DNA of 64,000 nt from an uncultured Verrucomicrobiota bacterium (GCA_946533675.1 CAMNBZ010000003.1:33014-97013); one strand, 5' to 3'; positions 8,164 to 54,282 are shown, counted from the first letter of the stretch. Notes: generated by a model from the letters alone, not told the origin. A program made the numbers and translations.

Positions 8164-8169
8164 CAAACC

Positions 8170-9360: not shown

Positions 9361-20944
<11,584 letters not shown>

Positions 20945-20961
<17 letters not shown>

Positions 20962-21310
20962 CAGATTTGCGGTGCTTGCCGCCGCCACCGTCCTCCTGAC
21001 GGGATGTCCGAAAGCGGAGAAGGAGCCCGAGCCGGAAACGACCCGGATGCAGGATCCCGTGTATGTCCAGAAGCTGGAGGTCGAGCGGGGCGAGCAGAAG
21101 CGCATCCAGGGCGATCTGGAGGCGGTGCGCCAGGCGCTGGAGGCGCTGAAGGCCGAGGACCCCGAGCTGACGGGGGACAAGGCGAAGGAGCTGGCGGCGC
21201 GCCGCGACGCGCTCCTGGAGGAATTCGGCGCAAGCCGCAAACGCGCGGCCGCGACGGTGCGCGAGCGCGTGCTGAAGGATTTAAACAATGAGAAGCAGAA
21301 GGGAGAATAA
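20945..21310 (+). CDS. small coiled-coil lipoprotein (121 aa)
   Basis: MKMPIDRFAVLAAATVLLTGC carries the lipobox L-T-G-C. The remainder is charged and heptad-like (LEAVRQALEALKAEDPEL...). The ATG overlaps the last 17 nt of giant gene 1, and the stop lies 4 nt before the giant gene 2 ATG. Confidence 0.6.
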
Positions 21311-21314
21311 GCCC

Positions 21315-37139: not shown

Positions 37140-38273
37140 ATGAAAAAGGCAATCCGTAAAGTTCTCGTCATCAACTCGGGCTCGAGCTCGCTCAAGTACC
37201 AGCTCTTCGACATGGTCAAGGGCGAGCGCATCGCCAAGGGCCTCGTCGAACGCATCGGCTGCGGCGGCCCGAAGGACCACACGGCCGCGCTCGACCAGGT
37301 CGTGAAGGATCTCGGCGACGCCGCGAAGGACGTCGACGCCATCGGCCACCGCGTCCTCCACGGCGCGGAGGTCTTCAAGGACTCCGTGAAGGTGACGAAG
37401 GACGTGATGGCGAAGTGCAGGAAGCTCGTCAAGTTCGGCCCCCTGCACATGCCCGCGAACCTCGGCGGCATCGAGGCGTGCGAGAAGATCTTCAAGGGCG
37501 TGCCGAACGTGGCGGTCTTCGACACGGCGTTCCACCAGACGATGCCCGACTGCGCGGCGATGTACGCCATCGACCCGAAGTACTACAGGAAGATGGGCAT
37601 CCGCAAGTACGGCTTCCACGGCACGAGCCACAAGTTCATCACCCAGGAGGCGGCGAAGTTCCTCAAGAAGCCCGTCTCCAAGGTGAATCTCGTCACGTGC
37701 CACATGGGCAACGGCTCGTCGCTCGCGGCGGTCAAGAACGGCCAGTGCGTCGACACGTCGATGGGTCTCACCCCGCTCGCCGGCATGGTGATGGGCACGC
37801 GCTGCGGCGACATCGACGCGGCGGCGGTCCTCTCCATCATGGAGGCGGAGAAGCTGACGCCGGCCGAGATGGATACGCTCCTGAACAAGAAGTCGGGCCT
37901 TGCGGCGCTCGCGGGTTCCAGCGACTGCCGCGACATCTGCGCGATGGCGGAGAAGGGCGACAAGAAGGCCGAGCTCGCGCTGGAGATGCTCGCCTACCGC
38001 ACGGCGTTCTACATCGGCGGCTACAACACCGTGATCGGCGGCGCGGACGCGATCGTGATGACGGGCGGCATCGGCGAGAACTCGAGCGAGGTGCGCGAGC
38101 GCATCGTCCGCCGTCTCGGCGCGCTCGGGATCAAGCTCGACAGGAAGGCGAACAAGGTGCGCGGCCAGGTGGCGGTGATCTCGACCAGGGATTCCAAGAT
38201 TCCGGTCGTCATCATCCCGACGAACGAGGAGCTCGCCATCGCGCAGGACACCGTGAAGATACTCGGGAAGTAA
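37140..38273 (+). CDS. ackA: acetate kinase
   Basis: VLVINSGSSSLKYQLFDM, HRVLHGAE, FDTAFHQTMP, YGFHGTSH, GGIGENS and IPTNEELAIA are all present. Confidence 0.97.
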   Translation: MKKAIRKVLVINSGSSSLKYQLFDMVKGERIAKGLVERIGCGGPKDHTAALDQVVKDLGDAAKDVDAIGHRVLHGAEVFKDSVKVTKDVMAKCRKLVKFGPLHMPANLGGIEACEKIFKGVPNVAVFDTAFHQTMPDCAAMYAIDPKYYRKMGIRKYGFHGTSHKFITQEAAKFLKKPVSKVNLVTCHMGNGSSLAAVKNGQCVDTSMGLTPLAGMVMGTRCGDIDAAAVLSIMEAEKLTPAEMDTLLNKKSGLAALAGSSDCRDICAMAEKGDKKAELALEMLAYRTAFYIGGYNTVIGGADAIVMTGGIGENSSEVRERIVRRLGALGIKLDRKANKVRGQVAVISTRDSKIPVVIIPTNEELAIAQDTVKILGK

Positions 38274-38308
38274 AGGGACTTAAAGGACAGAAGGGACTGG
38301 AGCAAGCC

Positions 38309-39346
38309 ATGAACGCAATCAAGACGATTATTGAAAAGGCTTCGGCGCTGCACGGCACGGTCGTGCTGCCGGAGGGCATGGATGCGCGCGTCATCACGGC
38401 CGCGTGCGCCTGCGTCGACCGCAAGATCTGCACGCCGGTCGTGCTCGGCACGGCCGAGGAGATCGCGGCGGCCGAGGCGAAGGCGGGTCTGAAGCTCGCC
38501 GAACGCAACATCCGAACGATCGACTACACTTTAGGAGACGCGGAGCTGGAGGCGGCGTACCTCGAGGCGTGGAACGCGAAGGAAGCGCGCAAGCCCGCCG
38601 AGAAGCAGAAGATCATCGACCTCGCGGCGGCCCAGAAGACGCTGCGCACGAAGCGCATCTACTTCGGCGGCATGATGGTCAAGCTCGGCCGCGTCGACGG
38701 CCTCGTCGCGGGCTCCATCGCCTCGACGGGCGACATGCTGCGCGCGGCGTTCCACACGCTCGGCACGCAGAAGGGCGTCAAGACGGCGAGTTCGTGCTTC
38801 ATCATGGACCTCAAGCGGCCGACGCCCGCGGGCGATTCGGTGCTCGCGTTCGGCGACTGCGCCGTCATCCCCAACCCGACGGCGGAGCAGCTCGTCGACA
38901 TCGGCCTCGCGACCGCGCAGACGTACCGCGACCTCACCGGCAACGAGCCGCGCGTCGCGTACCTCAGCTTCTCCACCAAGGGCTCGGCGGCGGGCGACCT
39001 CGTCGAAAAGGTGCAGAAGGCGGTCGAGCTCGCGAAGCCGGTCTTTGCCGAGAAGGGCATCAAGATGGACGGCGAGCTCCAGTTCGACGCGGCCATCGTC
39101 CCGTCGGTCGGCCAGCTCAAGAATCCGAACGGCACGGTGCAGGGCAACGCGAACGTCTTCATCTTCCCTGACCTCCAGGCGGGCAACATCGGCTACAAGA
39201 TCGCGCAGCGCCTCGGCGAGGCGGACGCGATCGGACCGAACCTCCAGGGCCTCGCGAAGGCGATGAACGACCTCTCGCGCGGCTGCTCGGCGGAAGACAT
39301 CGTGGGCACGATCTGCGTGACGCTCTTGCAGAGCACGACAAAGTAA
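38309..39346 (+). CDS. pta: phosphate acetyltransferase (short form)
   Basis: The protein starts MNAIKTIIEKASALHGTVVLPEGMDARVITAA and contains GLVAGSIASTGDMLRAA, DCAVIPNPTAEQL, FIFPDLQAGNIGYKIAQRL and GPNLQGL. The ORF-track start at 37415 is an off-frame-like 5' extension through ackA and is rejected. Confidence 0.95.
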   Translation: MNAIKTIIEKASALHGTVVLPEGMDARVITAACACVDRKICTPVVLGTAEEIAAAEAKAGLKLAERNIRTIDYTLGDAELEAAYLEAWNAKEARKPAEKQKIIDLAAAQKTLRTKRIYFGGMMVKLGRVDGLVAGSIASTGDMLRAAFHTLGTQKGVKTASSCFIMDLKRPTPAGDSVLAFGDCAVIPNPTAEQLVDIGLATAQTYRDLTGNEPRVAYLSFSTKGSAAGDLVEKVQKAVELAKPVFAEKGIKMDGELQFDAAIVPSVGQLKNPNGTVQGNANVFIFPDLQAGNIGYKIAQRLGEADAIGPNLQGLAKAMNDLSRGCSAEDIVGTICVTLLQSTTK

Positions 39347-39357
39347 AGGACGACGAG

Positions 39358-39402
39358 GATTCTAGAAGTCTAGAAACCGAGAAGCCGAGAAACCGAGAAA
39401 GG
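39358..39402. repeat. mini CTAG element plus (CCGAGA)x3 between pta and the isomerase gene
   Basis: TCTAGAAGTCTAGAAA mimics the centre of the large arrays (TCTAGAAAGTCTAGA). It is followed by GAAACCGAGAAGCCGAGAAACCGAGAAAGG. Confidence 0.6.
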
Positions 39403-39408
39403 CGATTG

Positions 39409-40395
39409 ATGACAGAGCAGGAGATGATCAAACGGGCGGCGGAAGTCTTCGATATCGAGATCGAAGGGCTTCGCCGCACCCGCGATTCGCTGGGTGCTTC
39501 GTTCGCCCGGGCGGTCGATCTCATGCTCGCGTGCATCCGCAACGAAGGCATCATCGTGGTGACGGGGGTCGGCAAGAACCTCGCCATCGCGGAGAAGATG
39601 AGCGCGATCTTCGCCTCGACGGGGACGCGCTCGATCTGCCTCAACCCCGTGCAGGCGATGCACGGAGACCTCGGGATGGTCGCGCCGCGCGACGTGCTCA
39701 TCGCGCTGAGCTTCTCGGGCGAGAGCGACGAGATCCTGCGGCTCATCCCCGCCATCCGGCGGCACGGCCTGAAGGTCATCGGCATGACGGGCCGGCCGCA
39801 GTCGACGCTCGCCGAGATGAGCGACATCCACATCGAAATCCCGTGCGGGAAGGAGGCGTGCCCCTTCGGCATGGCGCCGACGAACTCGACGACGGCGACG
39901 ATGGCGATGGGCGACGCGCTCGCGATGGTGATGATCGACGCGCTGAAGTTCGACGTCGAAAGCTACGCGCTGAACCACCCGGCGGGCGCGATCGGGCGCG
40001 CGCTCATCCTGAAGGTAACCGACATCATGCGCACGGGCGAGAAGCTGGCGAAGGTGGCGCCGGCGGCGACGGTGATGGACGCGCTCATGGCGATGACGAA
40101 GGCCAAGTCGGGCGCCGCGGTGATCGCCGCCGCGGACGGGCGGCTCGCGGGCATCTTCACCGACGGCGACTTCCGGCGCGTCGTCGCGGGCCGGGGCAGC
40201 GGCGACGTGCTGGGCGAGCCGGTGGCGAACCACATGACGCGCAGCCCCCTCTTCGTGCGCGACGACGCGCTCGCGGCGGAGATCGTCAAGGTGTTCGAGA
40301 AGCGGCGCATCGACGACCTGCCGGTGTGCGACGCGGACGGCCGGGTGGTCGGCCTCGTGGACATCCAGGACCTGCCGAAGATCAAAGTTTTGTAA
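39409..40395 (+). CDS. KpsF/GutQ-family arabinose-5-phosphate isomerase (SIS + tandem CBS)
   Basis: The SIS domain shows VVTGVGKNLAIAEKMSAIFASTGT...HGDLGMV...ISFSGESDE. The C-terminal CBS pair shows VMDALMAMTKAKSGAAVI...GIFTDGDFRR and DDLPVCD...VGLVDIQDL. Confidence 0.93.
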   Translation: MTEQEMIKRAAEVFDIEIEGLRRTRDSLGASFARAVDLMLACIRNEGIIVVTGVGKNLAIAEKMSAIFASTGTRSICLNPVQAMHGDLGMVAPRDVLIALSFSGESDEILRLIPAIRRHGLKVIGMTGRPQSTLAEMSDIHIEIPCGKEACPFGMAPTNSTTATMAMGDALAMVMIDALKFDVESYALNHPAGAIGRALILKVTDIMRTGEKLAKVAPAATVMDALMAMTKAKSGAAVIAAADGRLAGIFTDGDFRRVVAGRGSGDVLGEPVANHMTRSPLFVRDDALAAEIVKVFEKRRIDDLPVCDADGRVVGLVDIQDLPKIKVL

Positions 40396-40434: not shown

Positions 40435-41199
40435 ATGAAGAAGCTGATGATTTTGACGGTTGCCGCGCTGACGGTCGCGGCGGTGACGGCGGCGCCCGTG
40501 ACGACGGGCAGGCGCAGCGCGGGCACGCGCATGTCCGCGGGCCGCGCCGCGAAGGCGGCGGCGGCGGCGGACGAGGAGGCGCCGACCTCGGGCAAGGACG
40601 CCAAGGTGACGATCGACATGTTCCCGCGCCTCAACAAGCAGGCGACGTTCGGCGCGCCGAGCATCAACGGCGCGACGTACGTCTCGGGCGCGTACACGCG
40701 TCCGCGCAAGTGGATCGTCCTGGAGACGAAGTACTCGACGTACGCGGACTTCCAGAACCAGCTGACGTTCACGTGGCACGTCCTCCTGGACACGAAGACC
40801 TCGACGCTCAACCGCAGCAACAAGGAGGGCATCCCGCCCTACTCGTACTTCACGACCACGGTCACCTACCAGAACATCCCCGACGGGTCGCACGCGGCCT
40901 CGGTCGTGCTGCCGCCGTCGTACCTCGAGCGCTACGGCGAGCCGTGCGCGGTCGGCATCGTGATCACCAACGACAAGGGCGAGGTGCTCGCGGGCGACTG
41001 CGAGAGCTCGGGCGGCGAGGTCAAGGACTTCGCGCATCCGAAGAGCCTGGAGGACGCGTTCTGGAACAACCAGAAGATCATGAACGCGACGACGAAGGGC
41101 GGCGAGCCGATGATCGAGCGCCGCCAGGGCCTCATGGACCGCTCGAAGACGATCTGGGCGCTCGTGAACCCGAACGACTACGAAGCCGTCATGCAGTAA
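40435..41199 (+). CDS. secreted hypothetical protein, first gene of the pilus-like cluster (positional equivalent of Akkermansia Amuc_1102)
   Basis: The signal peptide is MKKLMILTVAALTVAAVTAAP, with a GAAAGGA SD. The body is beta-rich. The assignment is by position only. Confidence 0.75.
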   Translation: MKKLMILTVAALTVAAVTAAPVTTGRRSAGTRMSAGRAAKAAAAADEEAPTSGKDAKVTIDMFPRLNKQATFGAPSINGATYVSGAYTRPRKWIVLETKYSTYADFQNQLTFTWHVLLDTKTSTLNRSNKEGIPPYSYFTTTVTYQNIPDGSHAASVVLPPSYLERYGEPCAVGIVITNDKGEVLAGDCESSGGEVKDFAHPKSLEDAFWNNQKIMNATTKGGEPMIERRQGLMDRSKTIWALVNPNDYEAVMQ

Positions 41200-41220
41200 C
41201 AGCAAGGAAGGTCGCCGCAC

Positions 41221-42831
41221 ATGGCCAGCAAGACATTGACATTGAACATCGGCGCGTCGTCGGTCACGCTCGCCGAATACGAGCTGGGCGCGAAGCCGAA
41301 GCTCGTGAACTACGGCACGGCCGCGCTCGCCGCGCCGCTCGACTCGGGCAACGCGGGGACGATCCTCGCGCCCGCGCTCCTGGAGATCGTCCGCGAGAAG
41401 GGCATCAAGCCCGGCAAGGTGGCGATCGCCGTCTCGGGCCAGATGGTCTTCCCGCGCTTCGCGGCGATCCCGTTCGCGGGCAGCGACCAGGCGAAGTTCG
41501 AGCAGCTGGTCCGCTACGAGGTCGAGCAGAACGTGCCGTTCCCGATCGACGAGATGATCTGCGACCGGCAGGTGCTGGGCGAGACCGAGAACGGCGACAA
41601 GTCGGTGATGATCGTCGCGGCGAAGATCGAGCAGATCGAGGCGATCACGGACGCGGTGGCGGCGGCGGGCTTCACGCCGGAGCTCGTGGACGTGGCGCCG
41701 CTCGCGCTCGCGAACGCGCTCAAGGCGAACCGCCCGGGCGCGGACGACTGCGCGATCATCCTCGACATCGGCGCGAAGACGACCTCGCTCGTGGTGGTCG
41801 AGGGCGACAAGCTCTACAACCGCTCGATCCCGGTGGCGGGCAACACGCTCACCAAGGAGATCGCGCAGAAGCTCGGCTGCACGCTCGACGAGGCCGAGGC
41901 GTTCAAGCGCGAGAAGGCGTACGTCTCGCTCGGCGGCGTGATGGAGGACGACGACGCGACGCTCGACACGATCTCGAAGGTGTGCCGCGCGGTGATGACG
42001 CGCCTCAACGCGGAGATTTCGCGCTCGATGAACTTCTACCGCTCGCAGCAGGGCGGCGGGGCGCCGACGAAGCTGTACCTGACGGGCGGCACGGCGCTGC
42101 TGCCGCAGCTCGCCGAGTTCTTCCAGGATTCGCTCCAGATCGACGTCGAGTTCTTCAACCCGTTCGAGACGATCGGCACGGGCGGCGCGGTCGACGCGGC
42201 CGCGCTCGAGACGGACGTCGCGTTTCTCGGCGCGACGGCGGGCCTCGCGCTGCACGCGGCGGGCAAGGCGGAGCTGGCGATCAACTTGATGCCGCCGTCG
42301 ATCCTCGCGGCGCGCGCGGAAGTGCGCAAGATCCCCGTCGTGGCGGCGGGCGCGGTCGCGTTCGTGGCGGCGGCGGTCTGCCTCCTCCTGGCCGTCGGCC
42401 ACGGCAAGGCGGTCGTCGAGGCGCAGTACGACGCCATCGAAAGCAAGGCGAGCGTGCTCAAGGGCTTCGAGGCGAAGATCAAGACGGCGCAGAACCGCGA
42501 GGAGCAGGCGCGCGCCGACGCGGAGGCGCTGCGGCAGCTCGTCGTCCGGCGCGGCGCGGCGGTGACGCAGATCAACGCGATCCGCCAGGCGATCGGCGAG
42601 GATCTGTGGATCGAGAAGTGGGAGGCGGGCCGCGTGACGCTGCGCGGCTGGAAGGACCGCGTGGCGTTCTTCTCCCGGCGCAACGCCGGCAAGACCGCGC
42701 CGGAGATCGTCGTCGCGCGGCTGAAGGAGAATCCGGCCGTCGACCCGGATTCCGTGAAGGTGATCGACATGTCGAGCTTCGGCAAGGGCGACTGCGTCGA
42801 GCAGTATGTAGTGGAGGTGAAGTTTAAATGA
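41221..42831 (+). CDS. pilM: type IV pilus assembly protein PilM (actin-like ATPase fold) fused to a PilN-like TM/coiled-coil segment
   Basis: The PilM-like N-terminal ~350 aa include LNIGASSVTLAEY, VPFPIDEMICD, ILDIGAKTTSLVVV, RSIPVAGNTLT and LYLTGGTALLP. The PilN hallmark I-N-L-M-P (ELAINLMPPSILAARAE) follows, then the TM helix VVAAGAVAFVAAAVCLLLAV and a coiled coil. Confidence 0.85.
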   Translation: MASKTLTLNIGASSVTLAEYELGAKPKLVNYGTAALAAPLDSGNAGTILAPALLEIVREKGIKPGKVAIAVSGQMVFPRFAAIPFAGSDQAKFEQLVRYEVEQNVPFPIDEMICDRQVLGETENGDKSVMIVAAKIEQIEAITDAVAAAGFTPELVDVAPLALANALKANRPGADDCAIILDIGAKTTSLVVVEGDKLYNRSIPVAGNTLTKEIAQKLGCTLDEAEAFKREKAYVSLGGVMEDDDATLDTISKVCRAVMTRLNAEISRSMNFYRSQQGGGAPTKLYLTGGTALLPQLAEFFQDSLQIDVEFFNPFETIGTGGAVDAAALETDVAFLGATAGLALHAAGKAELAINLMPPSILAARAEVRKIPVVAAGAVAFVAAAVCLLLAVGHGKAVVEAQYDAIESKASVLKGFEAKIKTAQNREEQARADAEALRQLVVRRGAAVTQINAIRQAIGEDLWIEKWEAGRVTLRGWKDRVAFFSRRNAGKTAPEIVVARLKENPAVDPDSVKVIDMSSFGKGDCVEQYVVEVKFK

Positions 42832-43838
42832 ACAGGAACCAAATCACGATGGCCGCGATCGGCGGCGTGGCGCTCGTCGCGGTGCTGGCGGTCGGCTATC
42901 TGACCTACTCCGCGTGGGCGGAGCAGGGCGAGAAGGCCGAGGACCTGGAGACGGCGCTCGGCAACGTCCGGCGCATCAATTCGGCGAAGATCGCGCCGAA
43001 GTCGGAATCGGTGGCGGCGATCGACGCGAACGCGCAGAAGCTGGACGCCTGGCGCACGGAGGTGCTGGCCCTCGCGACGGCCGGCGACTTCGCGGCCGAC
43101 GGCGCGGCGACGCCGGAGTCGTTCAAGCAGAAGATGGTCGTCGAGGCGCGCGAGCTCGCGAAGCTGCCCGGCGGCGTTAACGGGAACATCGTCAAGGAGG
43201 ACTTCGACTTCGGCTTCAAGGACTACATCATCGGCGGCAGCATGCCCCCGCGCGAGCGGCTGGATGCGCTCCAGCGCCAGTGGTCGGAGGTGTCGCTGCT
43301 CGTCAAGATCCTCGCGCGCTGCGGCGCGCGCGAGCTGAAGGCCGTCACGGTGGGCGCGGCGGCCGAGGCGCCGAAGGAAGAGGAGGAGCAGCCGAAGCGC
43401 CGCGGCCCGCGCAAGAACGCGGCGAAGGAGATCGTCGCCAAGGACCCGGCGACGCCCCAGAGCTACGAGCTGAAGTTCACGGCGAAGCCGGCGGCGTTCG
43501 TGCGGATCATCGATGCGTGCGCGATCATCGAGCGCTTCATCGTGGTCGACGGCTTCTCGTTCGCGAAGGAGAAGGATACGCTCGCCGAGATCTTCGGCGG
43601 CAAGGAGAAGACGGAAACGTCCGGCGGCGGCCGGCGCGGGCGCGGGCGGCGGCATCAGCCGGCGGCCGAGGAGCAGGAGGTGGCGGCCGAGGAGGTCAAC
43701 CGCAAGGGGCTCGTGACCGACCCCGAGCTGGACGAGCCGCTGACGGTGACGTTGAAACTGACGACCTATGACTTCGGCACCGCCGCGGCGGCGAAGGAAG
43801 CCGGGGAGTCCGAGGAAGCGAAGGAGGTGGCGGAATGA
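42828..43838 (+). CDS. PilO-like / Amuc_1100-family membrane-anchored protein
   Basis: An ATGA overlap couples it to pilM. The N-terminal TM helix is ITMAAIGGVALVAVLAVGYL. Blocks are colinear with my recollection of Amuc_1100: INSAKIAP, LVKILARCGARELKAV, SYELKFTAKPAAFVRIIDA...ERFIVVDGFSF and LTVTLKLTTYDF. No alignment was run. Confidence 0.7.
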   Translation: MNRNQITMAAIGGVALVAVLAVGYLTYSAWAEQGEKAEDLETALGNVRRINSAKIAPKSESVAAIDANAQKLDAWRTEVLALATAGDFAADGAATPESFKQKMVVEARELAKLPGGVNGNIVKEDFDFGFKDYIIGGSMPPRERLDALQRQWSEVSLLVKILARCGARELKAVTVGAAAEAPKEEEEQPKRRGPRKNAAKEIVAKDPATPQSYELKFTAKPAAFVRIIDACAIIERFIVVDGFSFAKEKDTLAEIFGGKEKTETSGGGRRGRGRRHQPAAEEQEVAAEEVNRKGLVTDPELDEPLTVTLKLTTYDFGTAAAAKEAGESEEAKEVAE

Positions 43839-44980
43839 TCGCGGGCAAGGAAGGCAGGGGATTTTTCGCGGCGCACTGGGACTGGCTCGTGGCGGCCGGC
43901 GGCGTGCTGGCGCTGGGCGCGGCGGTGTTCGCGCTCGTGACGGCGCTCGGCACGGATCCGGACGAGAAGGCCAACGCGACGCTGGCGGGCCTGGGCGGCG
44001 CGCGCAGCGGCGACACGGGCGTCGAGGCGGTCGACATGGCGCCGTACGAAGCCGCGGAGAAGGACGTGCGCACGCCGCCGAAGGTGGTCGAGATCGCCGA
44101 GACGCAGGAGAGCTTCATGGCGTCGGAGCGGCGCGTCTTCTGCGAGCAGGGCGATCCGGCCGACGAGAAGAAGTCGTGCGGGCTGCCGATTCCGTTCGGG
44201 ATGAAGACGTGCCCGCTGTGCGGCGCGAAGCAGCCGGAGGAGCAGAAGGTCGTGCTCGATTCCGACGGCGACGGCATGGACGACGAGTACGAGGCCGCGC
44301 ACGGGCTCGATCCGAACCGCGACGACCGCGACGGGGATCTGGACGGCGACGGGTTCACCAACTGGGAGGAGTTCGAGGCGAAGACGGATCCGAACGATCC
44401 GGCGTCGCATCCCGACTACCTCGATTCGCTCGAACTCAAGCTGCCGCTCCAGGAGACGCATCTGCCGTTCTACTTCGACAAGGTGGCCCCGCTGCCGAAC
44501 GGCGCGAAGCGCTACTACTTCCGCGATCCGAAGCGGAAGAACGCGTACGGGCAGCGCGGCGTGACGTACTCGGTGCTCGAGGGCGAGGAGATCGGCGCGG
44601 CGGAGCAGATGCCGACGGGATTCGTCGTCAAGGGCTACACGGCGCGCAGCGAGGAGCGCAAGATCGCGGCGAGCAAGGGCGAGCGTCAGCTGACGCGCAC
44701 GGTCGACACGTCCATCGCCACGATCGAGCGCAAGAAGGACCGCAAGCGCCTCGAACTGGTCGTGGGCGAGTCGAAGCGGCCGGTCGCGGTGGACGCGAAG
44801 GCCACGCTCGTCTACACGCGCGGCGAGCCGAAGGAGTTCTCGGTTGCGGTCGGCGACGAGATCAAACTCAACGGCAATGCGTATAAAGTCGTTGAAATCA
44901 AGCGCGGCGACAAGGTCGTGACGGTTTCGGTGGCGGGTGAGGCCGGAAAGAAAACTCTCACCGCACCACTTGAACAGTGA
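43835..44980 (+). CDS. PilP-like protein with N-terminal TM helix, zinc-ribbon and thrombospondin-type-3-like Ca-binding repeats
   Basis: An ATGA overlap couples it to the upstream gene. The TM helix is WDWLVAAGGVLALGAAVFALV. A Cys pair region reads C-x12-C...C-P-L-C-G. TSP3-like repeats read DSDGDGMDDEYE and DRDGDLDGDGFTNWEEF. The C-terminal beta region (VAVGDEIKLNGNAYKVVEIKRGDKVVTV) is PilP-like. Confidence 0.7.
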   Translation: MIAGKEGRGFFAAHWDWLVAAGGVLALGAAVFALVTALGTDPDEKANATLAGLGGARSGDTGVEAVDMAPYEAAEKDVRTPPKVVEIAETQESFMASERRVFCEQGDPADEKKSCGLPIPFGMKTCPLCGAKQPEEQKVVLDSDGDGMDDEYEAAHGLDPNRDDRDGDLDGDGFTNWEEFEAKTDPNDPASHPDYLDSLELKLPLQETHLPFYFDKVAPLPNGAKRYYFRDPKRKNAYGQRGVTYSVLEGEEIGAAEQMPTGFVVKGYTARSEERKIAASKGERQLTRTVDTSIATIERKKDRKRLELVVGESKRPVAVDAKATLVYTRGEPKEFSVAVGDEIKLNGNAYKVVEIKRGDKVVTVSVAGEAGKKTLTAPLEQ

Positions 44981-44998
44981 GAAAAAATAGTTTATAAT
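44970..44998 (+). promoter_or_regulatory. sigma70-like promoter: TTGAAC - 17 nt - TATAAT upstream of the secretin gene
   Basis: The -35 is at 44970-44975 and the -10 at 44993-44998. An AAGGAG SD at 45014-45019 precedes the ATG at 45031. Confidence 0.55.
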
Positions 44999-45030
44999 AT
45001 CAACACAGTCAACAAGGAGCAACGTTCGAT

Positions 45031-48000
45031 ATGACGAACCTGAGAAACCTGGTCGCCCTCGGCGCGACAATGGCCATTGCGGTCGTTGGTGTTCATAGTT
45101 TTGCACAAGACGATCTCGACGATCTGCTCGCGGATCTTGAAAGCGAGAGCGCGGCGGCACCAGCCGAAGCGTCTGCGGACGAGGACGCGGCCGAAGCCGA
45201 GGAGCCTGCGGCGGCGGAGCCTGCGGCCGAGGAACCGGCGGAGGCCGAGGAACCTGCGGCGGCGGAGCCTGCGGCCGAGGAACCGGCAGAGGCCGAGGAA
45301 CCTGCGGCGGAAGAGGCGGCAGCCGAGGAAGAGCCGGCTGAGGAGGAATCCGCGGCCGAGGAACCCGAAGCTGAAGAGCCCGCGGCCGAGGAACCCGCTG
45401 AAGCCGAGGAACCTGCGGCCGAGGAACCCGCTGAAGCCGAGGAACCGGCGGTCGAGGAACCCGAAGCTGAAGAGCCTGCGGCCGAGGAACCCGCTGAAGC
45501 CGAGGAACCTGCGGCGGCGGAGGCTGCGACCGAGGAAGGGCCGGCTGAAGCCGCGGACGCGAATCTGCTGTCGCTGCTGGCCGAAACCGATGCGGGCGTT
45601 GCGGCGAGTCCCGCGGCACCGGCGGCGGAGAAGCCGGCCGAACCGGCCGCCGAACCGGCTGAAACGCCGGCCGCCGTCGCCGCTGTCGAACCGGCTCCCG
45701 CGCCTGCGGCCGAACCGGCTCCCGCGCCTGCGGCCGAACCCGCTCCCGCCGCCGCTCCGGCGCCCGCTCCTGCGCCGAAGTACGATGGGCCCGACGCGGA
45801 ACTGCTGGCCAACCTGTCGGCGACCGAAAAGCTGCGCCGCGAGGCGTTCGACATCCAGGCGCGTCGCGAGATCAGCGAGGCGCGCGCCTACATGGCGAAC
45901 GAGGAATATCTCGACAGCGTCAAGCACTACCGTATCGCGCTCAAGCTGCTGAACGACGCGCCGTCCTCCGAGGGGCTGCGCCGCGAATGCCAGCAGGGCG
46001 TCGCCGAGGGCTATTTCCGCGCGGCGTTCCAGGAAGAGTCGATCGGCCGTCGCGCGAAGGCGATCGACCTGATGGACAAGGCGCTCGCCGCCCGTCATCC
46101 GAAGGCGCGCCGCCAGCTGGAGGCGTGGAAGAATGCCGACGATCCCGAGGCGAACAAGGTCGATCTGTCCGAGATCAAGCACCGTCGCAACGACGCGGAG
46201 TACAAGGATCAGCGCGCGACGAACCTCCAGCACCTCAAGCGCGCGCGCCAGTTCCTCGGCAGCAAGGAGCTGAGCCGGGCGCTGGACGAGTGCGAACTTG
46301 TGCTGGTGAACGATCCCTACAACCAGGAGGCGATCCGTCTGCGCGAGAAGATCCAGAAGAAGCGCCACACGATCCTGATGCAGGAGCGCAAGGCGGCGCG
46401 CGAGGGCATGATCGCCGACGTCGACCAGGCGTGGCGCCCGGTGTATGCGGTCGATGCGCGCGAACTGGACGAGGTCGCGACGCAGACGGGCAAGACGCCC
46501 GGCGTCAACGGCGATCCGGAACGCAGCCTGGAGCAGAGCGTCATCAAGCGCATGAAGGAGATGCGCCTGCCGGCGATCTCGTTCAAGCCGCCGGCGACGA
46601 TCGTCGACGCGCTCGACTTCTTCCGCCAGGCCTCCAAGGACTTCGACCGTCCCGACATCCCGCTGGAGCAGCGCGGTTTCGACATCGTGTTCCTCCCGCC
46701 GGAGACGCTGCATGCGGCGGCGGACAGCGGCGAAGACGAGGCCGAGGGTTTCGGCGCGAGCGATGACGACGAGGCCGCGGGCGCGCAGGAAGGCCTGCCC
46801 GTCATCCCGATGATCGCCGCGAGCGACATCACGTTCTACGACGCGCTGAAGCTCGTCTGCGACACGGTGAAGTACAAGCCGCAGGTCAAGGGCAAGATCG
46901 TCATGGTCATGCCCCAGGGCGCGACGACGGAAGAAATGGTCACGCGCAGCTATCCGGTGCTTTCCACCTTCATGGAGCGCATGGACTCGGCCTCGAGCGA
47001 ACTGAAGGAGATGCGTTCGCAGGGCTTCGGCAGCTCCAACCGCCGCGCCAACGACGACGCCGGCGAGAACCAGGAGAAGGACTGGAAGGAGTTCTTCACG
47101 GAACTCGGCGTGAAATGGCCGGAAGGCTCGTCGATCATGTACATCAAGACGATCGGCAAGCTGCGCGTCAAGAACACGTACGAGAACCTCGCCGAACTCG
47201 AGAAGGCGCTGACCGAAATGAACGCCGACCCGAAGCTGATCGAGATCGAGACGCGCTTCGTGGAAGTCTGCCAGGACGACCTCAATTCGCTCGGCTTCGA
47301 GTGGATCCTCAACAGCGACTACTCGATCGGTCTGGGCAAGCACGTGTCGCGCGCGCTCGGCGTCCGTAACGGCACGTGGGGCTCGAACACCGGTTCGCGC
47401 ACGGTCACGCAGGAGCTCAACTACACCACCGATACGCTGAACGGCAGCACGATCCCGACGATGCGGTCCGTCACCACCGATTCCACCTCCGCGACGCGGG
47501 TGACCTACGCCAATTCGCGCGGCGCCAGCTGGATCCGCAACGGGGACGGCCACGGCAAGGTGGGCCTCAGCGCGTTCGGCGGCGACTCCGACCAGCAGAA
47601 CGGCATGCGCTATCTCTCGACGCTGTCGAACCACATCTCGGGCGAGAGTGGGTCGAACAACGACCAGTTCATGCGCGTGAACGCGTTCTTCGGCAACGCG
47701 GACCTGTCGATGATCCTGCACATGCTCGCGCAGCGCAGCGACACGGACCTCCTCTCCGCGCCGAAGGTGCTGACGCGTCCGGGCGTGGAGGCGGTCATGA
47801 AGGTCGTCACCGAGTACATCTACCCGACCGACTACCAGGTGCAGCTGCAGTCCAGCTCGTCCTCGTCCTCGGGCAACGGCGGCGGCAGCCAGTCGGCGAT
47901 TCTCGCGGTCGTCGAACCGCGCAGCTTCACGATGCGCGAGGTGGGCGTGATCCTCGACGTCACCCCGACGCTGACCGACGACGGCAACCTGATCGACCTC

Positions 48001-48573
48001 GATCTCAAGACGCAGGTCGTGGACGAGCCGACGTGGAAGAACTACGGCATGCGCATTCCGTTCACGGGCAACGCCTCGTCGCTTCAGAACTTCACCGGCC
48101 TCGGCGAGATCTTCACGGGCCTGAGCGAAATCCTGGGGGCGACGGGCACGGCGCTCAGCGATTCCGCGAAGGCGCTCTTCGCCCAGTCGGCGATGGATGC
48201 CGCGAGCAACGCGCTCGACAGCCTGACGGATTCGTCGAACGAAAACCTCACCTACTACGAAGCGCCGATGGAGCAGCCGTTCTTCCACGTCCGCTCGATC
48301 GAGTCGCAGGTGTCGGTCTATCCGGGCGCGACGATCGTGATGGGCGGCCTCATCACCGAGCAGCGCAAGGCGATGGACGACAAGATTCCGTTCCTCGGCG
48401 ACCTGCCGTTCATCGGCCGTCTCTTCCGCAGCCATGCGGAGCAGACGAACAAGCGCAACCTGCTGATCTTCGTGACGACGCGTCTCGTCGACGTGCGTGG
48501 CCGCGAGGTGCACATCTCGGCGAACGACACGCCCGCCCCCGAAGTGGTCGCGGCGCCGACCGAGGAGGACTGA
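45031..48573 (+). CDS. pilQ: type IV pilus / type II secretion family secretin (PilQ-like) with long N-terminal A/E/P-rich repeat region
   Basis: The signal peptide is [25 protein letters not shown]. The C-terminal secretin domain reads [20 protein letters not shown]...[55 protein letters not shown]. Confidence 0.92.
45160..45780 (+). repeat. coding tandem repeats (A/E/P-rich low complexity) in the secretin N-terminus
   Basis: A 48-nt unit ([16 protein letters not shown]) is repeated at 45196-45243 and 45244-45291. A 33-nt unit, GCCGAGGAACCCGCTGAAGCCGAGGAACCTGCG, occurs at about 45385, 45418 and 45481. A 24-nt unit, GAACCGGCTCCCGCGCCTGCGGCC, occurs twice at about 45690-45740. Confidence 0.8.
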
Positions 48574-48594: not shown

Positions 48595-49173
48595 GTGTGC
48601 GTGACGGGAGGGATTGCCTGCGGCAAATCCCTCCTTTCACATTATCTGAACGAGCTGGGCGTGGAAACGCTCGACGCGGATGACGTCGTGCACACGCTCA
48701 TCCCCGATCCCGCCGAGCGCCGCCGACTCGCCGCCGAGGTCTTCGCCGACCCGGCCGCGCGCCGCGCGCTGGAGGCGCGGCTCCATCCGCTCGTCAAGGC
48801 CCGCATCGACGCCTGGCTCGCCGGAGCATCGGCGGACGCGACGGGGCGCGTCCCCCCCTCTCAACTCTCACCTCTCCACTCGCGACTCCGAATTGCGGTT
48901 ATTCCGCTCCTGTTCGAGGTGCACTGGGAGCGATTTTTTGATATAATATGCACCGTCGTCTCCTCCCGCGAGAACCAGCTCGCCCGGATGATGACGACGC
49001 GCGGCTACAGCCGCGCCGAGGCCGAAGCCCGTCTGGCCGCCCAGCTGCCGGTCGGGGAGAAGGCGAAAAAATCCCATTACGTCATCGCCAACGACGGAAC
49101 CGCCGCCGACCTGCGAAGGGAGGTCGAGGCGTTTGTCGCGTGGCTGAAGGAGAAAGAGAAAGAACATGGCTGA
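48595..49173 (+). CDS. coaE: dephospho-CoA kinase
   Basis: The P-loop reads [10 protein letters not shown]. Also present are [33 protein letters not shown] and [18 protein letters not shown]. The start is GTG, and the stop overlaps the rho ATG. Confidence 0.88.
48939..48947 (+). promoter_or_regulatory. candidate internal promoter (TTTTTTGATATAAT) inside coaE, ~220 nt upstream of rho
   Basis: The extended -10 plus T-tract is the same 14-mer class as upstream of fba (58733-58747) and recA (57387-57400). Here it encodes F-F-D-I-I of CoaE. Confidence 0.4.
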
Positions 49174-50782
49174 AGAATTCGATGTGTTTGCCGGCAGCAT
49201 GAAGAACGCGGCGGGCGCGCCCCAGCAGAACGGCGGCGGCAAGGAGGGCGGCGCACCCGCGCCGGCGGGCGGCGCGCAGCCGGCCCAGCAGCAGCCGTCC
49301 GGTCAGGGGCAGTCGAACCACAACCGGCAGCAGAAGCGGCAGTTCCACCACGGCAAGCCGTTCAACCGCCCGCAGAAGCCGAACGCCTCGCCGATCCGCG
49401 GCGCGAACGGCAGCGAGTCGGTCAATCCGCTCCTGAACGCGCCGCTGCCGACGGAGCCGAAATCGGCCGAGCCCGCCGAGGCGGTCAACCCGCGCCGCGA
49501 CCCGAGCCTGCCGGAATTCCGCCTCGCCGACATCCAGACGTGGCCCGCTCCGGTCATCGTCGAGCGCATGATGCCGGGCGCGGACCCGGAGGAGCTGGGC
49601 ACCTACCGCAAGCACGAGCTGATCTTCGCGGCGATCCGCGCGTATCTCGCCAAGGGCGGCGCGGTGCTCGCGTCGGGCTGTCTGGAGATCGTGCGCGAGG
49701 GCCACGGCTTCCTCCGTTCGGCGAAGAACAACTTCCTCGCCTATCCCGAGGACGTGTTCGTGACGCAGCAGCAGATCCGCCGCCACGCGCTGCGGACGGG
49801 CGACATCGTCGAGGGCCCCATCCGCGACCCGCGCGACCGCGACCGCTTCTTCTGCCTCGGCAACGTGGCGACCGTGAACGGCAAGGAGCCGTCCGTCGCC
49901 GCGCGCGTCATCCACTTCGAGAACCTGACGGCGACGTTCCCGACGCGGCGCATCTTCCTGGAGACGGAGGCGAAGGAGTTCTCCACGCGCGTCGTCGATC
50001 TCTTCACGCCGATCGGCTTCGGCCAGCGCGGTCTCATCATCGCGCCGCCGCGCGTCGGCAAGACGGTGCTCCTTCAGAAGATGGCGAACGCCATCTCGAA
50101 GAACCATCCCGACGCGATGCTGATCATCCTCTTGATCGACGAGCGTCCCGAGGAAGTGACCGACATGCAGCGCAACACGAAGGCGATGGTGCTGTCGTCC
50201 ACCTTCGACGAGGAGCCGCAGCATCACGTGAGCGTCACGGAAATGGTCCTCGAGATGTCGAAGCGCCAGGTCGAGAACGGCCGCGACGTCATCATCCTCA
50301 TGGATTCGCTCACGCGCATGGCCCGCGCCTACAACACCGTCCAGCCGCATTCCGGCAAGATCCTGACAGGCGGCGTCGACGCGCTCGCCATGCACCGCCC
50401 GAAGCGCTTCTTCGGCGCGGCGCGCAACATCGAGGGCGGCGGGTCGCTCACGATCATCGCGACGGGCCTCATCGACACGGGCTCGCGCATGGACGAGGTG
50501 ATCTTCGAGGAGTTCAAGGGCACGGGCAACATGGAGATCGTGCTGGACCGCGGCCTCGCCGACAAGCGCATCTATCCGGCGATCGACATCGAAAAGTCGG
50601 GCACGCGCAAGGAGGACCTGCTCCTCGATCCCGTCGAGCTGGAGAAGACGTGGGGGCTGCGGCGCGTCCTCGCCGCGGCGGGCCCCGAATCGGCGATGAA
50701 GTCGGTCCTGAATTCGCTCAAGAAGACCCAGAGCAACCCCGAGTTCCTGCTCGCGCTCGATCTGAAGAATCTGGAGCGTTAA
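49166..50782 (+). CDS. rho: transcription termination factor Rho with ~115-aa Q/G/P/N-rich N-terminal extension
   Basis: [126 protein letters not shown] and YPAIDI are all present. Confidence 0.97.
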
Positions 50783-50799: not shown

Positions 50800-53700
50800 A
50801 TGAAGAAAGTTCTCGCCCTCCTGGCCGTGCTGCTGGCGGCGATGCCGTCGCTGGCGAGCACCCAGCGGATCTGGCCGCAGTACCGGATCGGCGCGGCGGA
50901 ACTTCAGAACAATGACGGCCGTCTGACCGTTTCGCGGGTGCAGGACGGCGCGGCGTATGTGGCGGACACCGACCCGTTGCTCACGACCTGCACCGTGGCG
51001 GTCGCCTCGATTCCGGCGGGGCAGCAGTTCACCCGCTGGTGGTATTACTATCAGACGGGGACAGGTTCGGCGCGGGCGGTGACGACGAACGAGACGGCGC
51101 TGGGGACGGCGAGCGCCTGCACCTGGACGTACGATGCGAAAATTGCAGCGGCGGGGGCCGCGGGCGTGTACGTTGTCGCCGATTTCGACTATCTCACCTA
51201 TACGCTCCACTACAACGCGAACGGCGGCAGCGGTTCGATGCCGGACGAGTCGCACATCTACACCAACCGATTCAATCTGGCGGCGAATGCGTTCACGAAG
51301 CCCGGCTATACCTTTGGCGGCTGGACGAACAGGACGGGGACCGCATTTGCGAACGCGGCATCCATCGCCTCGGGCGCGGTGTTCGGCGTCACCTACACGA
51401 ACGCGACGACACGCACGGCGAACCTCTACGCCACCTGGAAGGCCCGGGCCTACACGGTGACGCTCAATCCGCAGAGCGGCACGGGCGGCACGACGTCCGT
51501 GACGGCGACGTACGCGGCGGCGCTGCCGTCGGTCACGGCGCCGACGCGCACGGGGTACACGTTCGGCGGGTACTACACGGGCACGGGCGGCGCGGGCACG
51601 CTGTATTACAACGCGGACGGCACGGGCGCGCGCGCGTGGGACAAGGCGGCCGCGGCCACCCTCTACGCGAAATGGACGGCCGCGCGCGTCACGGTTCTCT
51701 TCAACGCCAACGGCGGCGCGTTTGCGGACGGGACGGCGGTGGATGCGCAAGGGCGCGCGTCCAAGAGCGTCGGCTACGACCAGGCGTACGGCGACCTGCC
51801 GACGCCGGTCCGCGCCGGCTACACGTTTGCCGGCTGGTACAATTCCGGCGCGGTCATCACGTCGACGACGATCTGCAGACGGACGGACGCGCATACGCTT
51901 TTTGCCTCCTGGAAGGCGAACGCCTACACGGTGACGCTCAATCCGCAGAGCGGCACGGGCGGCACGACGTCCGTGACGGCGACGTACGCGGCGGCGCTGC
52001 CGTCGGTCACGGCGCCGACGCGCACGGGGTACACGTTCGGCGGGTACTACACGGGCACGGGCGGCGCGGGCACGCTGTATTACAACGCGGACGGCACGGG
52101 CGCGCGCGCGTGGGACAAGGCGGCCGCGGCCACCCTCTACGCCCAGTGGACGGCGAAAACCTATCCGGTCGAGCTGGACTGGCAGGACGGTTCGGGCGGT
52201 ACGATCTCTGTGACGGCGACCTTTGCGTCCGCGCTGCCGCCAATCACGGTGCCGACGCGTACAGGCTACGTCTTCGACGGGTATTACGCCATGCGCAACG
52301 GCGGCGGGACCCAGTACTACAACGCAGACGGGACAGGAGCCCGGGCATGGGATCTGGATCGCGGCAGTCCGGTGCTGTATGCCAAATGGACGCCCGTAAA
52401 CTATCCTGTCACGCTCGATCCGCAGGGAGGCGCGGGCGGCAGCGCCGCGGTGACGGCGACTTACGACGCCGCGCTGCCGACGGTGACGGTGCCGGAACGC
52501 GCCGGATACGATTTCGGCGGCTACTACACGGATGTGGACGGCGCGGGCCAGCAGTATTACGCGTCCAACGGGACAAGCGCCCGGAAATGGGACATGACCG
52601 CCTCGACGACGCTGTACGCGAAGTGGACGGCGAAGAAGTATCGGGTGACGTTTGACCGGCAGGGGGGCGCGGGCGGCACGACCTCTGTCACGGCGACCTA
52701 CGACGCCGCGCTGCCGTCGGTCACGGTGCCGACGCGCACGGGCTATGCGTTCGACGGGTATGACGATCAGACGGGCGGCGCGGGCACGCCGTACTACAAC
52801 GCGGACGGCACGGGCGTGCGCGTGTGGGACAAGGCGTCCGATGCAACGCTGTACGCGAAATGGGTGCCGATCAGCTATACAATCGCCTTTGACGGCGGCG
52901 GCGCGGAGACGGGTTCGGTCGATCCCCTCGCCGCGGAATACGGCACGGTCTATGCGCTGCCGGCAAATGGATTCGTCCGGTCGGGATTCAACTTCACCGG
53001 CTGGCGCTTCGGCAACGCGACTTATGCGGTCGGCGCGAGCGTTTCCAATCTGACGACGACGGCGGGCGCGACGGTGACATTCTCCGCCATCTGGTCGGAG
53101 CTGCGGTATGCGGCGTTCGACGGCCACGGCGCGGACAATGCGGCGGCGATGATCGACGAGGTTCTGACCTTTGACGGCGTCGAGACGCACGCGCTTGTCT
53201 CGAACCGGTTTGAGAAGACGGGCTATACGTTCGGCGGCTGGGCGACGAACGAGACGGAAGCCGCCGCGCAGACGGTTGCCTACACCGACGGCGCGGATGT
53301 GGCCAGCACGAATCTGTGGAGCGGCGTCGGCGAAACGAATGTGTTCTACGCCGTGTGGTCCAACAATGCCTTTACGGTGACGTTTGACGCGAACGGCGGC
53401 GCAGGCGAGATGGAGCCGCAGGCGTTCTTCTACGATCAGCCGCAGGCGCTGTCGCCGTGCGCCTTCACGTCGAGCCTTGAATTCCGGGGCTGGGCCACGA
53501 ATGAAACGGATGAGGTCGTCTTCACCGACTGCGCCGCTGTCTCGAATCTGACCGCAGAGGCCAACGGCACCGTGACACTCTCTGCGGTGTGGGACAATGG
53601 CGAACTGTCGCAGGCGATGCACTGCCGCAACCTCGTCTGGGTGCAGAAGGAGACGGGGGCGGATTGGACGATTGTGAACGGCGCGGACGAAGGCTACAAT

Positions 53701-54282
53701 CCAAGCGGCTCGTCGGTTTCCTGCGCGATCAATTATTGGGAGGATATTATGCAATCCACAAGGCTGGCACTCCGGGACGGGACGACCGGTTCCGGGAAGC
53801 TCTTCTTCTGGTATAAAGCAACGCAAGCCGGCACCGATCCTTACTGGTTTTATTTTAAGTCGGGCGCTGAAACGCAAAAACTCGTTCTTCAGACGACCTG
53901 GACGAAGTTCGGTCCGGTGGACGTGGCGGACCTGAGCAAGGTCGCGATCTATCTGGAGATGGATACACAAAAGGGCGAAGACTGCACCGTCTGGATCGAC
54001 CAGATGACATGGGTGCCGGCCGGTGCGGAGCCGACGGAGGCCGACCGGCCCGTCGTCAGCGGATTCACACCCGCGACGACCGGCGGTTTCACGCTGTCGG
54101 TCGATCCCGCGAATATCAGTGGCTCGTTCAGTTATCAGATTCTGGCGACGAACGAGCTGGTGGGCGGCGAATGGCCGGTCAAGGCGAATCTGTCGGCGGA
54201 CGAGCTGAAGGCGGGCTATGCCATCACGCCGGAAGCCGGCGAGCCGACGATGTTCTACAAAGTGAAAGTGATCGCGAAATAA
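50800..54282 (+). CDS. secreted surface protein with ~9-10 Listeria-Bacteroides (InlB B-type, Flg_new) repeats and a C-terminal beta-sandwich domain
   Basis: The signal peptide is MKKVLALLAVLLAAMPSLAS. A ~79-aa unit recurs: Y.V.L(D/N)PQ.G.GG...VTATY...LP.V..PTR.GY.F.GYY......YY..DGT..R.WD......LYA.WT. GYTFGGW motifs are present. The tail is PTMFYKVKVIAK. The ORF-track start at 49540 is an off-frame read through rho and is rejected. Confidence 0.9.
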   Translation: MKKVLALLAVLLAAMPSLASTQRIWPQYRIGAAELQNNDGRLTVSRVQDGAAYVADTDPLLTTCTVAVASIPAGQQFTRWWYYYQTGTGSARAVTTNETALGTASACTWTYDAKIAAAGAAGVYVVADFDYLTYTLHYNANGGSGSMPDESHIYTNRFNLAANAFTKPGYTFGGWTNRTGTAFANAASIASGAVFGVTYTNATTRTANLYATWKARAYTVTLNPQSGTGGTTSVTATYAAALPSVTAPTRTGYTFGGYYTGTGGAGTLYYNADGTGARAWDKAAAATLYAKWTAARVTVLFNANGGAFADGTAVDAQGRASKSVGYDQAYGDLPTPVRAGYTFAGWYNSGAVITSTTICRRTDAHTLFASWKANAYTVTLNPQSGTGGTTSVTATYAAALPSVTAPTRTGYTFGGYYTGTGGAGTLYYNADGTGARAWDKAAAATLYAQWTAKTYPVELDWQDGSGGTISVTATFASALPPITVPTRTGYVFDGYYAMRNGGGTQYYNADGTGARAWDLDRGSPVLYAKWTPVNYPVTLDPQGGAGGSAAVTATYDAALPTVTVPERAGYDFGGYYTDVDGAGQQYYASNGTSARKWDMTASTTLYAKWTAKKYRVTFDRQGGAGGTTSVTATYDAALPSVTVPTRTGYAFDGYDDQTGGAGTPYYNADGTGVRVWDKASDATLYAKWVPISYTIAFDGGGAETGSVDPLAAEYGTVYALPANGFVRSGFNFTGWRFGNATYAVGASVSNLTTTAGATVTFSAIWSELRYAAFDGHGADNAAAMIDEVLTFDGVETHALVSNRFEKTGYTFGGWATNETEAAAQTVAYTDGADVASTNLWSGVGETNVFYAVWSNNAFTVTFDANGGAGEMEPQAFFYDQPQALSPCAFTSSLEFRGWATNETDEVVFTDCAAVSNLTAEANGTVTLSAVWDNGELSQAMHCRNLVWVQKETGADWTIVNGADEGYNPSGSSVSCAINYWEDIMQSTRLALRDGTTGSGKLFFWYKATQAGTDPYWFYFKSGAETQKLVLQTTWTKFGPVDVADLSKVAIYLEMDTQKGEDCTVWIDQMTWVPAGAEPTEADRPVVSGFTPATTGGFTLSVDPANISGSFSYQILATNELVGGEWPVKANLSADELKAGYAITPEAGEPTMFYKVKVIAK
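51448..51668 (+). repeat. 221-bp perfect direct repeat, copy 1 (partner 51922-52142)
   Basis: Identical base for base on hand comparison. The offset is 474 nt, equal to two protein repeat units. Confidence 0.85.
51922..52142 (+). repeat. 221-bp perfect direct repeat, copy 2
   Basis: See copy 1. Confidence 0.85.

Follow-up and report, generated by a model that had tools for sequence, protein, structure and literature searches.

A Kiritimatiellia counterpart of the Akkermansia Amuc_1102-to-Amuc_1098 (MUL2) cluster, likely the envelope-spanning part of a type IVa-pilus-like machine

The closest described relatives of the gene cluster considered here come from Akkermansia. Ottman et al. (PMC5332112) described the proteins Amuc_1098 to Amuc_1102 as abundant in the envelope and as possibly making up pili-like structures, and Amuc_1100 as a TLR2 agonist. 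The cluster has been named the MUL2 locus and, in a preprint (bioRxiv 10.64898/2025.12.30.696933), it is described as important for mucin acquisition and as kept in all Akkermansia; the same preprint states that the structure of Amuc_1100 resembles PilO/PilN and that other pilus genes of Akkermansia lie elsewhere in the genome. Another report finds MUL2 kept in Verrucomicrobiales, among them aquatic Akkermansiaceae, and to a lesser degree in Chthoniobacterales; it gives the succession MUL2, secretin, dephospho-CoA kinase and rho (PMC13174399). Akkermansia is reported to import large mucin fragments (PMC13524802), and a further study reports that MUL genes are needed for the accumulation of such fragments (PMC12418764). 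The subject of the present work is a related five-gene cluster, found at positions 40435-48573 of a stretch of 64,000 nucleotides (hereafter, the window) from an uncultured Verrucomicrobiota bacterium (GCA_946533675.1 CAMNBZ010000003.1:33014-97013). This locus is a distant Kiritimatiellia counterpart of the Amuc_1102-1098 cluster of Akkermansia, and we consider it rather likely that its products form those parts of a type IVa-pilus (T4aP)-like machine that span the envelope, the motor excepted. It is a distant member of a known and named system, the relationships being already present in Pfam and NCBIfam, and not a new kind of system. The homologies, topologies and synteny on which this reading stands were computed here, while the service to a filament is what we infer from them.

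A first-pass annotation of the window, made from the sequence alone, had proposed five consecutive genes encoding a secreted protein, a PilM(-PilN) protein, a PilO-like protein with a transmembrane (TM) anchor, a PilP-like protein and a secretin, in the layout of Amuc_1102 to Amuc_1098. All five open reading frames were recovered on the plus strand. The first, p1 (40435-41199, 254 residues), probably encodes an Amuc_1102-family (MUL2A-like) Sec-exported β-sandwich protein; p2 (41221-42831, 536 residues) belongs to the Amuc_1101 family and is read as a natural PilM-PilN fusion; p3 (42828-43838, 336 residues) encodes an Amuc_1100-family, PilO-like bitopic membrane protein; p4 (43835-44980, 381 residues) a bitopic protein of the Amuc_1099 family that occupies the PilP position; and p5 (45031-48573, 1180 residues) an Amuc_1098-family secretin. 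Two ATGA overlaps of start and stop codons, one at 42828 and one at 43835, can be read directly in the DNA. For comparison, the Akkermansia locus was reached through the authentic Amuc_1100, 100% identical to the crystallised sequence (loci L086 and L087), and there the Amuc_1102-1101-1100-1099-1098 genes agree with the window genes in order and strand. When the window proteins were compared by BLASTP with the six proteins of the Akkermansia locus, the best match of each was its positional counterpart: E 0.03 for p1 with Amuc_1102, 2e-69 for p2 with Amuc_1101, 0.007 for p3 with Amuc_1100 (24% identity over 176 residues), 6e-11 for p4 with Amuc_1099 and 1.5e-72, over 1020 columns, for p5 with Amuc_1098. 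The products of the two genes that follow p5 on the plus strand, coaE (dephospho-CoA kinase, 48595-49173) and rho (transcription termination factor, 49166-50782, overlapping coaE by 8 nucleotides), matched the CoaE and Rho parts of an Akkermansia CoaE-Rho protein with E values of 3e-16 and 4e-112, respectively. Since all seven best matches are positional, the string of genes shared with Akkermansia comprises seven members. The NCBIfam models for the Amuc cluster gave a consistent picture, with four of the five window proteins matched in the corresponding order.

The relationship of p3 to Amuc_1100, which the first-pass annotation had based on several colinear blocks, is borne out by four approaches that agree. 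The family model NF038287 (Amuc_1100) matched p3 with E 3.6e-17 and 63 bits, the cut-off being 180 bits, and PF28028 was found on all p3 homologues as well as on authentic Amuc_1100. A search of the PDB with the single sequence returned nothing; a profile built from 26 homologues placed the Amuc_1100 crystal structures 6LAD and 6KNY at the top (E 2e-4, colinear over about 210 residues). An AlphaFold model of p3 (mean predicted local distance difference test score, pLDDT, of 74) retrieved Amuc_1100 chains as its ten best Foldseek matches, with E values of about 1e-7 and TM-scores up to 0.75, and the next matches were to PilO, namely P. aeruginosa 2RJZ (E 9e-3, probability 0.99), 3JC8_Oa from the M. 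xanthus T4aP model, and the PilO core 5UVR. The fourth is the direct BLASTP match given above. The protein is anchored by a TM segment at its N-terminus and further contains a coiled coil, a ferredoxin-like core and a disordered stretch rich in Arg and Gly; an exact-sequence lookup found no identical sequence on record. The PilO-like label is therefore supported by the Foldseek matches to PilO, and the comparison places Amuc_1100 among the assembly proteins of the inner membrane, in the PilO class.

The assignment of p2 follows from both family models and structures. It matched NF045709 (Amuc_1101 family) with E 1e-120 and 404 bits (equivalog cut-off, 650 bits), TIGR01175 (PilM) with 186 bits, above the 133-bit cut-off, and PF11104 with E 8e-42. 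In the PDB its matches were PilM structures, 3JC8_Ma (E 1e-34) and 2YCH, and no GspL match appeared in the PDB or family searches. The protein is predicted to comprise a cytoplasmic actin-like PilM domain (approximately residues 1-345), an INLMP motif corresponding to the PilN-type peptide (residues 354-358, nucleotides 42280-42294), a TM helix (approximately residues 368-400, nucleotides 42322-42420) and a periplasmic C-terminal domain of about 135 residues. The alignment to 5EOU, an engineered PilM-PilN(1-12) chimera, reaches residue 358, and that to PilM alone ends at residue 345. We read p2 as a natural PilM-PilN fusion, its last part being assigned to the periplasm by predicted topology, and the PilM models and structures, together with the INLMP peptide, sustain the PilM(-PilN) label given initially. 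Fused PilM proteins of this type form a large family, with 615 clusters (at 50% identity) recovered at E ≤1e-30.

In the case of p1, sequence and structure had to be weighed together. No family matched in the family-model scans, NF042424 (Amuc_1102) gave no match at E ≤0.1, authentic Amuc_1102 scoring 232 bits with this model, and neither single-sequence nor profile searches of the PDB reached the Amuc_1102 structure 7DSZ by sequence. On the other side, p1 is 58% identical to a protein from a neighbour genome annotated with PF28178 (Amuc_1102), a label carried by more than 1000 p1 homologues, and its AlphaFold (AF2) model, with a core pLDDT of about 90, found 7DSZ as its best PDB fold match by Foldseek (E 3e-7, 188 of 190 residues, 19-20% identity). 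On balance, p1 probably belongs to the Amuc_1102 family. Its N-terminus resembles a Sec-type signal peptide and lacks the G/FTLxE prepilin leader, which, as far as processing is concerned, rules it out as a type IV pilin. The secreted nature of p1, like the single N-terminal TM helix of p3 and the secretin domain of p5 (PF00263), was thus found as originally described.

The counterpart of Amuc_1099, p4, was the member that exceeded the curated threshold of its model: it scored 71 bits (E 1e-19) against NF042425, whose cut-off is 50 bits, and it also matched TSP3_bac (E 1.5e-8). It is built from an N-terminal TM anchor, a four-cysteine knuckle, TSP3 calcium-binding repeats, a SHPDYLD motif and a C-terminal β-rich domain, and its cysteines and motifs are kept in the alignment of homologues. 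The knuckle (C103, C115, C126 and C129, within residues 103-129) is kept across Kiritimatiellia and absent in Akkermansia Amuc_1099; as it lies on the predicted periplasmic side, it could be a pair of disulfides and not a zinc site.

The last protein, p5, aligned from residue 250 to 1160 with positions 14-803 of the 805 in NF042912 (Amuc_1098 family), with E 5e-123 and 412 bits against a cut-off of 750, and matched the Secretin family PF00263 with E 3e-31. Because p2, p3 and p5 fall under their equivalog cut-offs, they are distant relatives, and not near-orthologues, by the NCBI standard. A signal peptide (residues 1-25) is followed in p5 by an acidic repeat linker rich in Ala, Glu and Pro (39% A, 29% E, 17% P) of about 220 residues (approximately residues 30-250, nucleotides 45120-45780), then by a helical, tetratricopeptide repeat (TPR)-like region, and finally by the C-terminal secretin domain, whose last 70 or so residues match GspD and PilQ structures equally. 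Family scans gave no AMIN, Secretin_N or N0-N3 domain match, and the scores against TIGR02515 (PilQ, 113 bits) and TIGR02517 (GspD, 125 bits, E 3e-36) lie below the respective cut-offs of 284 and 351 bits. From these sequence features, p5 is classed as a secretin, not as a canonical PilQ. The number of secretin genes varies among relatives. The window and Akkermansia have one each; in Lentisphaeria-type loci two secretin paralogues stand in tandem behind an Amuc_1099-like gene (14212-17055 and 16982-19471 in locus L102; 14239-16809 and 16813-19473 in L144), and locus L089 carries three (7220-9862, 9876-12500 and 12460-15066). The tandem copies may represent heteromeric or alternative secretins.

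The conservation of the arrangement was examined in related genomes. The named homologues and the 80 best loci in reference genomes belong to metagenome-assembled genomes (MAGs) of gut or rumen Kiritimatiellia, which identifies the window, as judged by sequence relatedness, as part of a gut or rumen Kiritimatiellia MAG. The RecA encoded in the window is identical to that of a contig in the NCBI assembly GCA_002449695.1. In all 81 related Kiritimatiellia loci the genes ackA-pta-isomerase-p1-p2-p3-p4-p5-(coaE-rho) are collinear; all five cluster genes were detected in 67 of the 81, the remainder being cut by contig ends. The 4-nucleotide overlaps are likewise kept, between p2 and p3 in 67 of 75 loci and between p3 and p4 in 73 of 79. 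Median best-segment identities within this set were 58% for p1, 61% for p2, 38% for p3, 44% for p4 and 58% for p5, p3 being the fastest-evolving member. With 81 collinear loci out of 81 and the identical order in Akkermansia, the cluster is far beyond chance. A metagenome scan seeded on distant PilM-type members added 80 further loci with the arrangement (1102)-1101-(1100)-1099-1098, and the loci to which a name could be given come from Lentisphaeria or Victivallales. The range of the cluster thus includes at least Verrucomicrobiota, Kiritimatiellota and Lentisphaerota. The placement of coaE-rho directly after the secretin gene was seen only in Akkermansia and gut Kiritimatiellia, and was not found in the 80 Lentisphaerota-type loci. 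The occurrence of the cluster in both Kiritimatiellia and Lentisphaerota, and the coaE-rho tail that Kiritimatiellia shares with Akkermansia, point to an ancestral envelope machine of these phyla of the Planctomycetes-Verrucomicrobia-Chlamydiae (PVC) group and not to a mucus-specific adaptation. Five typical Kiritimatiellia loci (L033, L041, L075, L084 and L085) occur in records labelled Faecalibacterium, Gemmiger, Lachnospira, Methanomethylophilaceae or Alistipes, which probably reflects bin contamination or mislabelling.

These observations can be accommodated in a model in which the five proteins, whose membrane topologies fit T4aP-type parts, would form a complex spanning the envelope. In this model, p2 would place its actin-like PilM domain in the cytoplasm and, through the INLMP peptide and the TM helix, continue into a periplasmic domain; p3 would be its PilO-type partner, anchored in the inner membrane by the N-terminal helix; p4, the bitopic protein with calcium-binding repeats, would link this inner-membrane pair to the pore; and p5, a secretin extended by TPR-like repeats, would form the gated outer-membrane channel. 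The Sec-exported β-sandwich protein p1 would act as an accessory, possibly a periplasmic or surface adaptor. The complex is proposed to work for a type IV filament, either a pilus or a pseudopilus, with subunits of the prepilin type; this filament would be driven by PilB/PilC/PilT-type proteins encoded elsewhere and would pass through the secretin. By analogy with Akkermansia, the machine probably helps glycan-degrading gut bacteria to bind or take up polymeric substrates.

Several facts weigh against this proposal. Four of the five proteins are below the NCBIfam equivalog cut-offs or lack a match to the model, and p1 has no counterpart in canonical T4aP machines. The periplasmic fold of p2 received no confirmation from hhalign, in which its C-terminal half aligned weakly with a PilO-like profile (73% probability), over the TM and coiled-coil segments only, in a match driven by the TM helix. 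A profile of p4 searched against the PDB matched neither PilP nor GspC, and p4 has a TM anchor and no lipobox; of the initial PilP-like label only the position in the cluster stands, so the PilP role is a positional one. The secretin remains under both the PilQ and the GspD cut-offs, with no detectable AMIN or N0 domain. Some 160 loci were free of motor ATPase motifs to a distance of about 10 kb from the cluster, for which reason the link to a motor is indirect, and the search of this genome, which covered the window, brought up no PilB, PilT, PilC or PilD. Finally, the role in Kiritimatiellia is extrapolated from Akkermansia genetics.

The absence of motor genes near the cluster bears on one alternative, namely that the locus encodes an autonomous, PVC-specific secretin conduit that works with the Amuc_1102-family protein instead of pilins, for example in gated import of glycoproteins or glycans, and that has no dedicated PilB/PilT motor. 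Indeed, no GspE/PilB/PilT-type Walker motif was found in the window or in 2.47 Mb of sequence flanking 167 loci, and across about 160 loci from three phyla the cluster is never beside a motor ATPase or pilin gene. The properties of p1, which is Sec-dependent, is not a prepilin, is specific to the system and is better conserved than p3 (median identity 58% versus 38%), would also suit such a conduit, as would the import of large mucin fragments by Akkermansia and the reported need of MUL genes for their accumulation. However, the classical pilMNOPQ operon stands apart from pilB, pilC, pilD and pilT, as in P. aeruginosa, so that unlinked motor genes are not anomalous and the lack of linkage weighs little. 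In addition, PilM-type proteins are known only in ATPase-driven type IV filament machines, and no secretin is known to import without a filament. Furthermore, the window does contain a prepilin gene. The first-pass annotation had seen no major pilin and no PilB, PilT or PilC in it; the statement holds for the latter three, whereas a gene with a class III signal is present at 2403-3314 on the plus strand (303 residues, leader MKKGFTLVELLVVI, TIGR02532 match), 37 kb from the cluster. Its product has a GspG-like N-terminus, and its occurrence indicates that the genome makes filament-class substrates. We thus regard as improbable the autonomous conduit and, with the same reserve, its broader form, in which the cluster would be a distinct machine of at least three PVC phyla, with a Sec-exported β-sandwich subunit of its own from the Amuc_1102 family, and not an ordinary PilMNOPQ; such a machine would mostly carry large glycans or glycoproteins inward through its secretin, or would build a non-pilin surface structure. 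If it were so, Amuc_1100 would be a conserved inner-membrane machine part and not an Akkermansia-specific host effector. Two side observations concern the prepilin gene: its product ends in a FADAHTE motif reminiscent of the DUF1559-type pseudopilins of PVC bacteria, and the open reading frame upstream of it (71-2395) had no family match.

A second alternative, to which we give a somewhat smaller chance, is that the cluster forms the outer section of a type II secretion system (T2SS), with p2, p3, p4 and p5 as GspL, GspM, GspC and GspD, exporting folded glycoside hydrolases or other exoproteins. The cytoplasmic-TM-periplasmic architecture of p2 resembles GspL, the fold class of p3 is common to GspM/EpsM (1UV7 being a weak Foldseek match), the C-terminus of p5 matches GspD as well as PilQ (E 3e-36 with TIGR02517), and the prepilin of the window is GspG-like at its N-terminus. 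Nevertheless, p2 is strongly related to PilM models and structures and to no GspL, the best structures for p3 outside the Amuc set are PilO and not GspM, p5 attains 125 of the 351 bits required for GspD with no N0-N3 domains detected, and no gspE, gspF or gspG-K genes occur nearby.

The weakest alternative arose from the first-pass annotation, which had named the giant proteins of the window as adjacent to the cluster and as candidate cargo of the secretin. These are giant A (9361-20961, 3866 residues, with Gly_rich_2 and DUF2341) and giant B (21288-37073, 5261 residues, with TSP3_bac and Laminin_G_3). Adjacency did not hold, because ackA, pta and a SIS/CBS isomerase gene, all three of them housekeeping genes (37140-40395), intervene. 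Both giants carry signal peptides, giant B shares TSP3 repeats with p4, and each of the 57 Kiritimatiellia loci that extend far enough has a giantB-like gene upstream of ackA; however, the intervening genes are equally syntenic, as expected from frozen synteny across the lineage, and the co-occurrence of giants and cluster ends at the gut Kiritimatiellia, since the Akkermansia cluster has no giant gene in the 7 kb before it or the 6 kb after it and there is no open reading frame of at least 1500 residues beside the cluster in any of 27 Lentisphaerota-type loci. The Akkermansia and Lentisphaerota-type loci speak against the giants as specific cargo and, as secretins alone are not known to pass unfolded proteins of several thousand residues, export of both giants by this secretin is highly improbable.

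The genes around the cluster are closely packed on one strand from ackA to rho, a region without a terminator-like site on the plus strand, in a window with a G+C content of about 67% throughout. The upstream genes are ackA (37140-38273), pta (with its end at 39346) and, directly before p1, the gene for a SIS/CBS sugar-phosphate isomerase (39406-40395). The sole good match to a σ70-like promoter, TTGAAC-17-TATAAT at 44970-44998 on the plus strand, is located in the 50-bp AT-rich spacer between p4 and p5. It is a consensus match only, agreeing at 10 of 12 positions, and three such sites occur in the region versus 0.9 expected; this putative promoter may allow the secretin gene to be expressed separately from p1-p4. 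After rho, a large protein with Listeria-Bacteroides repeats of the Flg_new type is encoded at 50830-54282, followed farther downstream by uvrA and recA. In some relatives (for example L009, at about 17599, and L040, at about 17666), a similar Flg_new-type gene sits between the secretin gene and coaE.

The interest of the locus derives in part from the fact that Amuc_1100 is under development as a host-active "postbiotic" protein and that genetics connects the Akkermansia cluster with mucin foraging. Our literature searches found no paper mentioning the Amuc_1102-1098 cluster in Kiritimatiellota or Lentisphaerota, nothing linking Kiritimatiellota to pili or secretins, and none on PilB/PilT of Akkermansia; precomputed Pfam labels, for their part, were already present on cluster proteins of Kiritimatiellota and Lentisphaerota. 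The finding of the same five genes in gut Kiritimatiellia and in Lentisphaerota extends the published range of the cluster, and the more than 150 loci now constitute comparative material from which to learn what the machine moves.

When the cluster is set beside known machines, the GspC-GspL-GspM-GspD assembly of the T2SS shares with it a common logic, that of a fused three-part protein, a small bitopic partner, a linker protein and a secretin, although the affinities of p2 and p3 to PilM and PilO are the stronger ones. With the PilMNOPQ machinery of the T4aP, as found in P. aeruginosa, M. xanthus and T. thermophilus, the likeness includes the PilM domain and the PilN-type INLxP peptide, the PilO-fold partner, the C-terminal secretin domain and the gene order M-N-O-(P)-Q, away from motor and pilin genes. 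The window cluster differs from it in the fusion of PilM and PilN in a single protein, in the occupation of the PilP position by a TM-anchored TSP3-repeat protein without detectable PilP similarity, in a secretin that has a TPR and acidic extension and no detectable AMIN or N0 domain, and in the additional gene at its head, p1, which encodes a Sec-exported β-sandwich protein.

The comparison with Akkermansia MUL2 is the closest, even though the window comes from a different phylum, Kiritimatiellota, has about 67% G+C and encodes proteins only 24-35% identical to their counterparts. The four-cysteine knuckle and an extra TSP3 repeat of p4 are not in Amuc_1099, and p5 carries here the acidic A/E/P linker of about 220 residues. 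The genes p2/p3 and p3/p4 overlap by 4 nucleotides, instead of being separated by gaps of 29-35 nucleotides as in Akkermansia, and coaE and rho are separate genes, in contrast to the single fused open reading frame of 673 residues in Akkermansia (14890-16911 in L086). Upstream, the ackA-pta-isomerase genes of the window are replaced in Akkermansia by genes for a peptidase M42 and Lgt; neither ackA/pta nor giant genes occur there. Both loci, however, combine the same five families, identically ordered on a single strand, with coaE and rho behind them; p3 shares the fold of Amuc_1100 and p1 that of Amuc_1102; and both secretins, Amuc_1098 consisting of TPR plus Secretin, bear an N-terminal helical, TPR-like extension.

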